Below, in pieces: positions 6,034 through 8,058 of a DNA stretch of 27,826 nucleotides. How positions within the stretch are numbered: position 1 is the stretch's first letter; each line of letters starts with the position of its first letter. The notes under the pieces were generated by a model. The model saw only the letters and a program-made list of their open reading frames with translations. It had not been told where the DNA came from and made no database searches. Made by a program: the position numbers and the translations under genes. The DNA comes from Chloroflexota bacterium (GTDB lineage: Bacteria; Chloroflexota; Dehalococcoidia; Bin125), in contig VXTH01000046.1 in assembly GCA_009837565.1 (NCBI GenBank), positions 1 through 27,826 on the forward strand. The letters are read 5' to 3'.

Positions 6034-6297
6034 ATGACTACGACACAGCGAGATGCGATCGACACGACCGACGAGGGCTTCACGCTCATCGTTGACAACA
6101 AGGAGTACTTGGTGAAGTCCGAACTGCTCACCGGACGGGAGATCATGAAGCTTGCCGACATTCCGTTCGCGGACGGGCTGATTCAGCTTCTGCCTGACGG
6201 CACCCAGGTGCTGATTGGGCTCGACGAAGCAGTCGACCTCAAGCAGGGTGACCACTTCAAGCGCCCACCCCGCTTCAAGCGGGGGATGTCCTCATGA
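6034..6297 (+). CDS. Ubiquitin-like (multi-ubiquitin-type) protein, 87 aa
   Basis: AAGGAG RBS at 6021-6026 and ATG at 6034. Pattern F.L.VDNKEY....LLTGREIM.LA...L....G....IGLDEAVDL..G..F, ending ...KRG-MSS. It is the first gene of an E2/JAB/E1 operon. Confidence 0.82.
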   Translation: MTTTQRDAIDTTDEGFTLIVDNKEYLVKSELLTGREIMKLADIPFADGLIQLLPDGTQVLIGLDEAVDLKQGDHFKRPPRFKRGMSS

Positions 6298-6680
6298 CAA
6301 TGGAGCGGCGTCTGCGGGAAGTTGAGCTACTGCGTCAGCGGTACTCGCGAGTCGAGCATGGCTCCGATCTCGATTGGTTGATGTTCAAGGACTTCCCCCT
6401 GCCTTCAGGCTGGGACCGTGGGTCTACAGACATTCTGGTACTGATCCCGCCTGGGTATCCGGAGACCCCACCTGACAACTTCTACGTGCCCAACGGACTG
6501 CGTCTCCAGTCGAACACCGTGCCCGGCAACTTCGCTGAAGGTCAGGAGGTCCTCGGTGCATCCTGGGCTCAGTTCTCCTACCACGCCGAGACCTGGACAC
6601 CGACCCACGACCTGTGGAATGGGGACACACTCGTAACGTTCATGACCGCCGTCGAGCGGCGGCTAAGAGAGGCCAACTGA
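6294..6680 (+). CDS. Prokaryotic E2/UBC-fold protein (E2 family E-like) with no cysteine
   Basis: FPLPSGW...ILVLIPPGYPETPPDNFYV...W.QFSYH...WTP...DTLVTFM.AV pattern; ATGA overlap with the Ubl stop; zero Cys in 128 aa. Confidence 0.85.
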   Translation: MTMERRLREVELLRQRYSRVEHGSDLDWLMFKDFPLPSGWDRGSTDILVLIPPGYPETPPDNFYVPNGLRLQSNTVPGNFAEGQEVLGASWAQFSYHAETWTPTHDLWNGDTLVTFMTAVERRLREAN

Positions 6681-6681
6681 A

Positions 6682-8058
6682 ATGAGTGTTCTCGTCATCG
6701 CAGACGACCTGTGGAGCAGGCTTCGGGATCATCTGCTCGCTGATCGCGAGGAACGCGCCGGCTTCCTGCTGGCCAGATCTGCCGGGCCCAGACTGATCGT
6801 TCGCGACCTCGTGTTGATTCCTGACGATCAGCTTGAACGCGGCACGGATTCCGTCTCGGTTACTCCACCGGCGCTTGTCGATGTGATGAACCGGGCCGTC
6901 CGCGAGGACATGATCATCGTCGAAGCGCACAGCCATCCACAGTCGTGGGAAACGGTGCGCTTCTCGGACTTGGACGACCAAGGCCAGCGAGAGATGGTCG
7001 TCTATCTGGCAGACGTGATGCCGGGACGAACGTACGGCGCGATCGTCGTAGGTCAGTCCGCCGTGGCAGGCAGGTTATGGCACGGTAGGCGATGGACCCC
7101 ACTCGACCACGTACTTGTGACTGGACCTCACATCGAGCTGTGGTCCGGTGACGGAAGCCCGATGACGCGGAACTCACGCGCTTCAGTACGGCACTCGGAT
7201 CGTTACGATCGTCAGGTCCGAGCGTTTGGGCAACAAGGCCAAAGCAAGATTGCCCGCTGTCGCGTGGCCGTCGTTGGAGAGGGTGGAATCGGTTCAATCG
7301 TCACGGTTCAGCTCGCCCACCTCGGCGTGCGCGATATCGCGCTGATCGACGCCGATCGCGTCGAAGAATCAAACCTCAACCGGCTCGCAGGCGCAACCCC
7401 CTCAGATGTCGGCCAATTGAAAGTCGACCTCGCTGAGGTCCAGTTCCGGCGAGTGAGTCCCGTAGCGTCCATCTGCTCAGTTCCCGAGGAGATTCGAACT
7501 GAATCAGCTCTAGAAGCTGCTCAGAGCGCAGACGTGTTGTTCGGCTGTGTCGACACAGATTCCGGTCGCCTGATTCTAAACGAGCTAGCTGTGACGCACG
7601 CCATCCCCTACATCGACTGCGGATCAGGCATCGACGCGCCTGATGGCCGCATGAGTGCTGCCGGCGGTCAAGTCGTTGTCTGGGTTCCCGGCCGACCGTG
7701 CCTCCTCTGTTGCGGTGAGATTGACCGTGCCATCGCCGCTGAAGAACTGGAGAGCGAAGATCTACGGGCATTCCGAAGGGGACGTGGCTACATCTCCGGC
7801 TCCGATACACCCGAACCATCGGTGATCTCACTGAACGGAACGGTGGCATCATTGGCAGTAACGGAGTTCATCGCGCTTCTCACTGGGTTCCGGCCGGCCA
7901 ACCACTACACCTACTACGACATGTTCAATCAGCGTGTCGGTCAGCGTCTCGTCAAGAGGAATCCGCTCTGCTTCACATGCTCCACAGAGGGGACTGGCGA
8001 CTCAGCCAACGTGAAGCGATACAGCCGAATAGCCGTGCCAATGGATCTTCCGGCTTAG
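6682..8058 (+). CDS. JAB metallopeptidase fused to a ThiF/E1-like adenylation enzyme
   Basis: N-terminal JAB domain (E..G...EAHSHP......FS..D). C-terminal E1 domain: RYDRQ, GEGGIGS, DADRVEESNLNRL, CVDTDSGR, and Zn-binding CLLC and CFTC. Confidence 0.92.
   Translation: MSVLVIADDLWSRLRDHLLADREERAGFLLARSAGPRLIVRDLVLIPDDQLERGTDSVSVTPPALVDVMNRAVREDMIIVEAHSHPQSWETVRFSDLDDQGQREMVVYLADVMPGRTYGAIVVGQSAVAGRLWHGRRWTPLDHVLVTGPHIELWSGDGSPMTRNSRASVRHSDRYDRQVRAFGQQGQSKIARCRVAVVGEGGIGSIVTVQLAHLGVRDIALIDADRVEESNLNRLAGATPSDVGQLKVDLAEVQFRRVSPVASICSVPEEIRTESALEAAQSADVLFGCVDTDSGRLILNELAVTHAIPYIDCGSGIDAPDGRMSAAGGQVVVWVPGRPCLLCCGEIDRAIAAEELESEDLRAFRRGRGYISGSDTPEPSVISLNGTVASLAVTEFIALLTGFRPANHYTYYDMFNQRVGQRLVKRNPLCFTCSTEGTGDSANVKRYSRIAVPMDLPA

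Follow-up and report, generated by a model that had tools for sequence, protein, structure and literature searches.

Does a bacterial locus encode a pathway for conjugating a ubiquitin-like protein when neither its E2-like enzyme nor the crossover loop of its E1 contains a cysteine? The question is raised by a contig of a Chloroflexota bacterium (class Dehalococcoidia; GenBank assembly GCA_009837565.1, contig VXTH01000046.1), of which positions 1 to 27,826 of the forward strand were analysed as one stretch, hereafter called the window. Three plus-strand open reading frames (ORFs), tightly packed head to tail, encode a ubiquitin-like modifier (Ubl), an E2-like enzyme, and a fusion of a JAB/JAMM peptidase domain with an E1 adenylation domain (JAB-E1). 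We consider it likely that the locus is an intact three-gene Ubl conjugation cassette of the Bub (6E) kind, in which Tyr370 of the JAB-E1 and Ser95 of the E2 would pass the modifier along an oxyester relay.

Organization of the cassette

The three genes of the cassette, with their Pfam matches, are the following.

6034..6297, plus strand: ubiquitin-like modifier (BubA-like), 87 aa, Multi_ubiq 4e-8
6294..6680, plus strand: E2-like enzyme (BubB-like), 128 aa, Prok-E2_E 3e-18
6682..8058, plus strand: JAB/JAMM peptidase-E1 adenylation fusion (BubCD-like), 458 aa, ThiF 6e-41, Prok-JAB 3e-4

The start of the Ubl gene is best placed at the ATG at 6034, which is preceded by an AAGGAG ribosome-binding site. 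Its stop codon overlaps the ATG of the E2 gene (ATGA), and a gap of 1 nt separates the E2 stop from the JAB-E1 start. The genes for Ubl, E2 and JAB-E1 are thus arranged as what is quite probably a translationally coupled and intact conjugation cassette of the Bub (6E) kind. A preliminary description of this DNA had taken in positions 6294-8058, which hold the E2 and JAB-E1 genes; the unit also includes the Ubl gene immediately upstream (6034-6297). The Prok-JAB match at the N-terminus of the JAB-E1 is weak (Pfam, 3e-4). No model of PADLOC 2.0 or NCBIfam matched the Ubl or the E2, and the matches of the JAB-E1 in these collections were generic or Cap2 adenylation-core models only.

Catalytic residues of the E2 and the JAB-E1

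The positions on which the assignment depends are listed below.

6576-6578 (S95), 6582-6584 (H97) and 6474-6476 (D61), plus strand: predicted catalytic residues of the E2, from alignment to BubB
7714-7815, plus strand: crossover loop of the JAB-E1 (residues 345-378), no Cys, invariant Y370 with its codon at 7789-7791
E24, H83, H85, S95 and D98 of the JAB-E1, plus strand: JAB site, from alignment and column counts
G201-x-G204, D223, R234, K247 and D291 of the JAB-E1, plus strand: adenylation site, from column counts in 108 relatives
C340/C343 and C430/C433 of the JAB-E1, plus strand: zinc-type cysteines, from column counts in 108 relatives

The preliminary description had stated that the E2 has no cysteine and carries serine in an FSYH motif, and that the E1 loop between the motifs CLLCC and PSVISLNG lacks cysteine and contains RGY. 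Both statements were borne out. The E2 has 0 Cys in 128 aa, with FSYH at residues 94-97. In the JAB-E1, CLLCC occupies residues 340-344, RGY residues 368-370 and PSVISLNG residues 379-386; there is no Cys in the loop (345-378), nor any between residues 345 and 429. By composition alone, these absences are unremarkable: at 0.8% Cys, the frequency in the other genes of the window, the probability of finding none is ~0.35 for 128 aa and ~0.76 for the 34-aa loop. The weight of the observation therefore rests on homology and conservation.

The reference for both enzymes is the Bub system of Citrobacter sp. RHBSTW-00271, for which structures are available (PDB 9ea4, 9ea5, 9eae and 9eav; Ye, Gong, Chambers & Corbett). 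When the PDB was searched with the E2 alone, Citrobacter BubB was the sole match (E 1e-5), and it was again the sole match of a profile built from 28 E2 relatives (E 3e-9). Residues D61, S95 and H97 of the E2 align on D299, S333 and H335 of BubB, and all three are unchanged in 28/28 aligned relatives. A broader sample, the 150 closest E2 representatives taken from a library of 1.8 billion proteins, holds Ser in 115 and Cys in 27 at the S95 column, a split as expected for what would be the nucleophile position of the E2 fold. By length, 114 of these representatives are of stand-alone size (<=160 aa, a few fragments included), and 36 are longer, which is consistent with fusions.

Other E2 classes were met in the same sample. 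Cys-x-His replaces Ser-x-His in about 27 of the 150 representatives, and in a third class, about 45 of the 150, Tyr occupies the D61 position and the His is missing. Two metagenomic cassettes of the Cys type were read (L057:1371-3244 and L058:6001-7829); in both, the JAB-E1 keeps the loop tyrosine, as AGY, and has no loop Cys, and in L058 it has one Cys just past the loop, inside the ISLNG motif. These two cassettes may represent mixed systems, with a Tyr ester on one enzyme and a Cys thioester on the other. Relatives with Cys at the E2 position and Tyr on the E1 offer a ready comparison of ester and thioester transfer.

The JAB-E1 matched Citrobacter BubCD (PDB 9ea4) over residues 4-407 with an E-value of 2e-35, and the next PDB matches, Uba4, MoeB and ThiF, came at 1e-16 and weaker. 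Identity to Citrobacter BubCD is ~30%, as estimated by eye from the printed alignment. BubCD numbering was obtained by counting through this alignment, with a correction for the two residues by which the crystallised chain is longer at its N-terminus. On this numbering, E24, H83, H85 and D98 of the JAB-E1 align on E28, H91, H93 and D104 of BubCD; the chain of the D104A mutant bears this out, as it differs at precisely the D104 column. R234 falls on R227 of BubCD, and Y370 (RGYISG) on its Y370 (RGYITG). Mutants of the Citrobacter system give these positions their meaning: with Y370F or S333A/H335A, conjugation was lost both in vitro and in cells, with R227A it was lowered, and with E28A or D104A the BubAB precursor was no longer cleaved after its conserved Gly (bioRxiv 10.1101/2024.11.21.623953).

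Conservation across 108 full-length E1 relatives follows the same positions. Y370 is present in 108/108 and G369 in 107/108, and a loop Cys of any kind occurs in 3/108. Within the JAB domain, E24 is kept in 104/108 and H83, H85 and D98 in 108/108 each. Each of the residues G201, G202, G204, D223, N231, R234, K247 and D291 is found in 108/108. The pair C340/C343 is unchanged in all 108 relatives, C430 is kept in 107/108 and C433 in 105/108. We take these two cysteine pairs to form a structural zinc site, by analogy with ThiF, MoeB and UBA5.

A fit to the Bub pathways that use Ser and Tyr oxyester intermediates, also put forward in the preliminary description, is thus supported by the equivalence of residues with BubCD and BubB and by their conservation, while the oxyester intermediates at this locus we infer from homology. 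Those of the studied Bub systems rest on mutants, structures and a model (bioRxiv 10.1101/2024.11.21.623953).

The modifier and its C-terminus

The 87-aa Ubl is made up of one beta-grasp domain and shows one Multi_ubiq match; no sequence match to it was found in the PDB. Its C-terminus reads PRFKRG, in which G84 (codon 6283-6285) belongs to a conserved PRFxRG motif, and continues with a three-residue tail, MSS. Eighteen related Ubls were read; in 15 of these the protein stops right at the aligned RG, a three-residue tail (MTR) follows in the two nearest relatives, and one further Ubl is truncated. Because most relatives end at the aligned RG, Gly84 is the predicted reactive C-terminus of the Ubl. 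The JAB site is conserved although most of the related Ubls need no trimming, and the JAB domain should therefore have another job, which would most simply be deconjugation.

The Ubl has six lysines and the E2 has one, so chains of Ubl on Ubl would be possible. In another Dehalococcoidia locus (L007), the Ubl is fused in frame to the E2.

Comparison with known systems

Type I Bub, once known as 6E.1 or DUF6527 operons, consists of BubAB (a Ubl-E2 fusion), BubCD and BubE, a DUF6527 serine protease (bioRxiv 10.1101/2024.11.21.623953). The window locus resembles the Citrobacter representative of this type in its JAB-E1 fusion, which has equal length and domain order, in its Cys-free crossover loop with an invariant Tyr, and in its E2 triad of Ser-x-His and Asp. 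It shares further a Ubl whose predicted reactive Gly precedes extra residues that the JAB domain would have to remove, and a setting on a mobile or defence island with an adjoining regulator of the helix-turn-helix (HTH)/M78 type. Unlike in Type I, the Ubl and the E2 are encoded by two genes and not as a BubAB fusion; the Ubl consists of only one beta-grasp domain, against three in that of Citrobacter; the E1 retains a CxxC...CxxC pattern, whose cysteines Citrobacter BubCD lacks; and no BubE/DUF6527 was found in the window, in its metagenome-assembled genome (MAG) or in 15 related genomes. Judged by these features, the locus would count as Type I in its BubCD, its Tyr loop and its Ser/His/Asp E2, and departs from that type in the BubAB fusion and in BubE.

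The operons of row 6e in an earlier survey combine a polyUbl of 2-3 tandem beta-grasp domains, a Cys-less E2/RWD-like protein, a JAB-E1 and a metal-binding protein Y (Iyer, Burroughs & Aravind 2006, PMC1779556). The Pfam families Multi_ubiq, Prok-E2_E and Prok-JAB were all matched in the window, and the gene order and the Cys-less E2 agree with this description, which already permits an unfused Ubl and E2 (PMC1779556). Unlike the 6e operons, the window has a single-domain Ubl, and the metal-binding protein, now BubE, was not found in it. The 6e E2 was called inactive in 2006 (PMC1779556), whereas that of the window is now expected to be active.

Type II Bub (6E.2; BubA, BubBD and BubE; E. coli ZDHYS365) shares the Tyr/Ser chemistry and the Ubl family. 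In Type II the E2 is fused to the E1, there is no JAB, the Ser is accompanied by Lys and His, and BubE is always present; the window, by contrast, has a separate E2 (128 aa) and an E1 with an N-terminal JAB. Type II E1s match a profile of the window-clade E1 over the adenylation core only. More distant likenesses exist to Bil (bacterial ISG15-like) and to Cap2/Cap3 of the cyclic oligonucleotide-based antiphage signaling system (CBASS), which are likewise bacterial E1/E2/JAB conjugation modules in defence islands. Both of these use catalytic cysteines, in contrast to the window, with 0 Cys in its E2 and none in its E1 loop, and their E1 architectures differ (IAD-AAD-CYS in Bil, the E2-E1 fusion Cap2 in CBASS). 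The PADLOC models for Cap2 match the window E1 in its adenylation core only (best value 4e-13).

The BubE-less branch

No match to BubE (DUF6527, PF20137) was found in six frames of the window's own MAG, which is 66% complete, or in six frames of 15 other cassette-carrying genomes, one of which (L007, OZ241365.1) is titled a chromosome-level assembly. Six metagenomic loci had no DUF6527 listed at distances of up to 6-8 kb from the cassette. As a positive control, PF20137 matched 17/401 Pseudomonadota genomes. Fifteen of the control DUF6527 loci were enlarged to ~12 kb and read; JAB-E1 genes were present in 5, with the E2 fused or unfused. Seven more of these fifteen loci held E1s that match the profile of the window-clade E1 over the adenylation core only, which we read as the putative Type II E2-E1 form. 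An unfused E2 adjoins BubE in two loci (L049 and L054). Since such E2s exist beside BubE, and Iyer et al. 2006 allowed them, an unfused E2 is no novelty as such.

In an unrooted maximum-likelihood tree of 22 JAB-E1s, 17 BubE-less and 5 BubE-linked sequences are split by a 100/99 branch. The CxxC...CxxC pattern was rejected as a clade marker of the BubE-less E1s, being present in 4/5 of the BubE-linked ones. The three-gene layout without BubE, its catalytic residues kept, was seen in over 20 loci, which belong to at least 9 phyla, and related cassettes include three archaeal MAGs.

The archaeal cassettes (L010, L012 and L018) lie in MAGs labelled Nitrosopumilaceae, Thermoplasmata and Heimdallarchaeota, respectively. 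The E1s of the Nitrosopumilaceae and Thermoplasmata MAGs nest within an otherwise bacterial clade of the E1 tree, a placement that would indicate transfer between domains. No E1 was readable before the contig end in the Heimdallarchaeota locus, which was left out of the tree.

All 544 catalogued Bub operons are said to encode BubE (Ye et al., bioRxiv 10.1101/2024.11.21.623953). That catalogue was assembled from DUF6527-containing operons (companion paper of Ye et al.) and therefore could not include BubE-less cassettes. No description of BubE-less Bub cassettes was found in the literature searched, and the branch is widespread and apparently uncatalogued.

A substitute for BubE as a fourth gene was not apparent when the ORFs of 19 loci were clustered all-against-all: antisense shadow ORFs aside, only M78 peptidases, with HTH partners, recur. 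The CHAT-TPR gene (8998-12432), MazF and HerA of the window were rejected as cassette partners, as they do not recur across the 19 loci.

It could well be, and we put this forward with some reserve, that the BubE-less three-gene cassettes are a distinct third type of Bub. Such a type would have spread horizontally across bacterial phyla and archaea (the Nitrosopumilaceae, Thermoplasmata and Heimdallarchaeota MAGs). It would use JAB as its only peptidase, for maturation as well as deconjugation, and the nucleophile of its E2 would be Ser in some members and Cys in others, with the tyrosine of the E1 retained.

Proposed mechanism and alternative explanations

By analogy with BubAB processing, the JAB domain would begin by trimming the MSS tail and freeing Gly84 of the Ubl. 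The E1 domain, with ATP, would then adenylate Gly84, a step to which the conserved R234 and D291 would contribute, and Tyr370 of the crossover loop would accept the Ubl as a tyrosyl oxyester. From there the Ubl would move on to the E2, where a seryl oxyester with Ser95 would form; His97 and Asp61 would make this serine more reactive, as the homology of the three residues to S333, H335 and D299 of BubB suggests. The E2 would then hand the Ubl to target lysines. Because the cassette lacks the BubE serine protease, JAB is probably its sole peptidase domain, and may also remove conjugates; we hypothesize that, without BubE, JAB reverses the modification. The adjacent HTH-M78 protein, which is CapH/CapP-like, probably holds expression off and releases it on DNA damage or infection. 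An antiphage or stress-response role of the cassette is likely, because it sits on a mobile defence island.

Several points weigh against this picture. Conjugation at this locus is predicted from homology. In the Bub study itself, the tyrosyl ester of E1 and Ubl was not trapped, and Y370F did not prevent formation of a BubA-BubCD adduct (bioRxiv 10.1101/2024.11.21.623953). The absence of BubE from a 66%-complete MAG is, taken by itself, weak. The BubE-linked set of the tree consists of 5 sequences from one phylum, and the BubE-less set was collected by similarity to the window, so the split between the two is partly a statement about sampling. The HTH-M78 protein may serve the neighbouring toxin MazF rather than the Bub genes, because its match to the antitoxin RmrA beats those to capP and capH and the MazF gene follows it. 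Finally, phage protection has been demonstrated for no Bub operon, according to a 2026 EMBO J paper.

Other explanations accept the same genes and differ in the chemistry. Tyr370 might be essential and yet no covalent carrier, if Ser95 of the E2 or a target amine attacked the Ubl-adenylate directly and the tyrosine positioned the E2 or took part in acid-base catalysis; the relay would thereby shrink from two oxyester steps to one. The adduct formed despite Y370F, which its authors judged off-pathway, fits such a scheme, as does the fact that no Tyr-linked intermediate was isolated, and crystal structures put Y370 beside the Ser/His of the E2 and not in the adenylation site (bioRxiv 10.1101/2024.11.21.623953). 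We nevertheless regard it as unlikely: the Tyr is present in 108/108 relatives, inside the loop that holds the catalytic Cys of other E1s, Y370F abolished the product, and in an AlphaFold model the distance from the hydroxyl to the AMP phosphate is 3.7 A (bioRxiv 10.1101/2024.11.21.623953). That the E1 would instead form a conventional thioester through C344, the third Cys of CLLCC, with the E2 as a mere adaptor, is hardly credible. This cysteine does lie where the crossover loop begins, and the preliminary description had named it as the alternative nucleophile. It proved not to be conserved: the column holds Cys in 47/108 relatives, and Ala (33), Ser (16) or Thr (6) in 55/108. C344 is also the residue right after the invariant CxxC, the partner of C430/C433, and Citrobacter BubCD is active without these cysteines. 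A hidden catalytic role of C344 was rejected on the variability of the position.

Two further explanations were weighed. Mutation might have split bubAB, and bubE might have been lost, leaving a decaying or incomplete Type I operon that no longer works as a regulated system; the 544/544 catalogued operons with BubE and the BubAB fusions of Type I would argue for this, given that here BubE was not found and the Ubl and E2 are separate. Such decay is very unlikely in view of the same layout in more than 20 loci of at least 9 phyla, without BubE and with all catalytic residues kept. Most relative Ubls, moreover, stop exactly at the reactive Gly, the DUF6527-based catalogue could not hold BubE-less operons, and unfused E2s adjoin BubE as well (L049, L054). 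The interpretation of 2006 would make the E2-like protein an inactive, RWD-like binder of Ubl and have the E1 merely adenylate or thiocarboxylate the Ubl in the manner of ThiF and MoeB. It draws on row 6e of Table 1, where the E2-like domains are called inactive for want of a Cys (PMC1779556), and the best NCBIfam matches of the E1 are indeed MoeB/ThiF models, all far below their cut-offs. This interpretation appears highly improbable, since the Bub systems of Citrobacter and E. coli conjugate Ubl in vitro and in cells and need Ser/His and Tyr to do so (bioRxiv 10.1101/2024.11.21.623953), no sulfur-transfer genes lie nearby, and an invariant D/S/H triad would be unexpected in an inactive domain.

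For the preferred reading, a conjugation cassette with a Tyr/Ser oxyester relay, the significance lies less in the chemistry than in the branch. Cysteine-free chemistry is already published, and the locus adds no new principle to it; its value is that of a member of a compact, apparently uncatalogued branch of Bub. If the three proteins work alone, they would be a minimal oxyester ubiquitination machine. This would bear on the purpose of BubE, since JAB would have to do the deconjugation, and it would extend the Bub pathway to archaeal MAGs. Should the proposal of a third type hold, the cassettes would provide a natural series for asking why and how oxyester chemistry replaced thioesters. No target or demonstrated biological role is available for any Bub system, and the locus leaves that unchanged.

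Regulator and genomic context

The genes and regions around the cassette are as follows.

4632..5786, minus strand: XRE HTH-M78 (ImmA/IrrE, CapP-like) fusion regulator, 384 aa from ATG, GGAGGAGG ribosome-binding site, divergent
4257..4616, minus strand: MazF/PemK-family toxin gene, 15 nt downstream of the HTH-M78 gene
5787..6033, no strand: divergent intergenic control region, with a minus-strand promoter-like site at 5886-5858
8510..8806, minus strand: UvrD_C-matching ORF, 98 aa, sub-threshold (6.5e-4), between the E1 and CHAT genes
8998..12432, minus strand: tetratricopeptide repeat (TPR)-CHAT protease, 1144 aa, weak N-terminal CpXC match
63..2905, minus strand: HerA-like ATPase with an unannotated partner
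15893-21446: coupling protein and Replic_Relax-like gene, in a higher-GC block (~69% vs 60%)
21619-24847, plus strand: McrBC

Across the 19 loci, the cassette has one recurrent neighbour only, an M78 ORF, which is present in 13/19. A small separate HTH gene usually stands beside it, divergent or directly upstream and co-directional (L014, L019). CapH and CapP are associated with 31% of Bub operons (bioRxiv 10.1101/2024.11.21.623953), and the recurrent HTH/M78 neighbours, which match this reported association, suggest by analogy that the cassettes may be derepressed on DNA damage. In the window, the HTH-M78 protein matched Pfam HTH_3 (6e-13) and Peptidase_M78 (3e-16). Its best PADLOC match was RmrA, the RosmerTA antitoxin (2e-53), ahead of capP (3e-12) and capH (4e-8), and NCBIfam gave 'spr1629 family repressor/antitoxin', below cut-off. 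No separate small antitoxin gene accompanies the HTH-M78 and MazF genes (4257-5786, minus strand). They look like a RosmerTA-style pair with MazF as the toxin, and the divergent promoter region would be common to them and the Bub genes.

Within the intergenic region, the promoter-like site on the minus strand, TGGACA-17-TAGAAT, is weak support for a promoter (1 found vs 0.7 expected), and no consensus promoter was found on the plus strand in 5787-6033. Promoter and operator scans of 5700-8600 gave nothing better than shuffles. GGACA/TGTCC/GGACA half-sites (5868-5893) overlap the region's only promoter-like site; the HTH-M78 protein may use them as its operator, and their arms are too short for statistical support.

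The contig as a whole reads as a mobile defence island. A Prok-E2_E match was found in 1/24 same-genus and 1/16 same-class genomes searched; the cassette is therefore accessory and mobile. The TPR-CHAT gene converges on the JAB-E1 gene and is not beside the cassette in the 19 other loci, and its product has a sub-threshold match to the type III-E Csx29 model (2e-10). Between these two genes, the 98-aa UvrD_C ORF is apparently the remnant of a helicase C-terminus.

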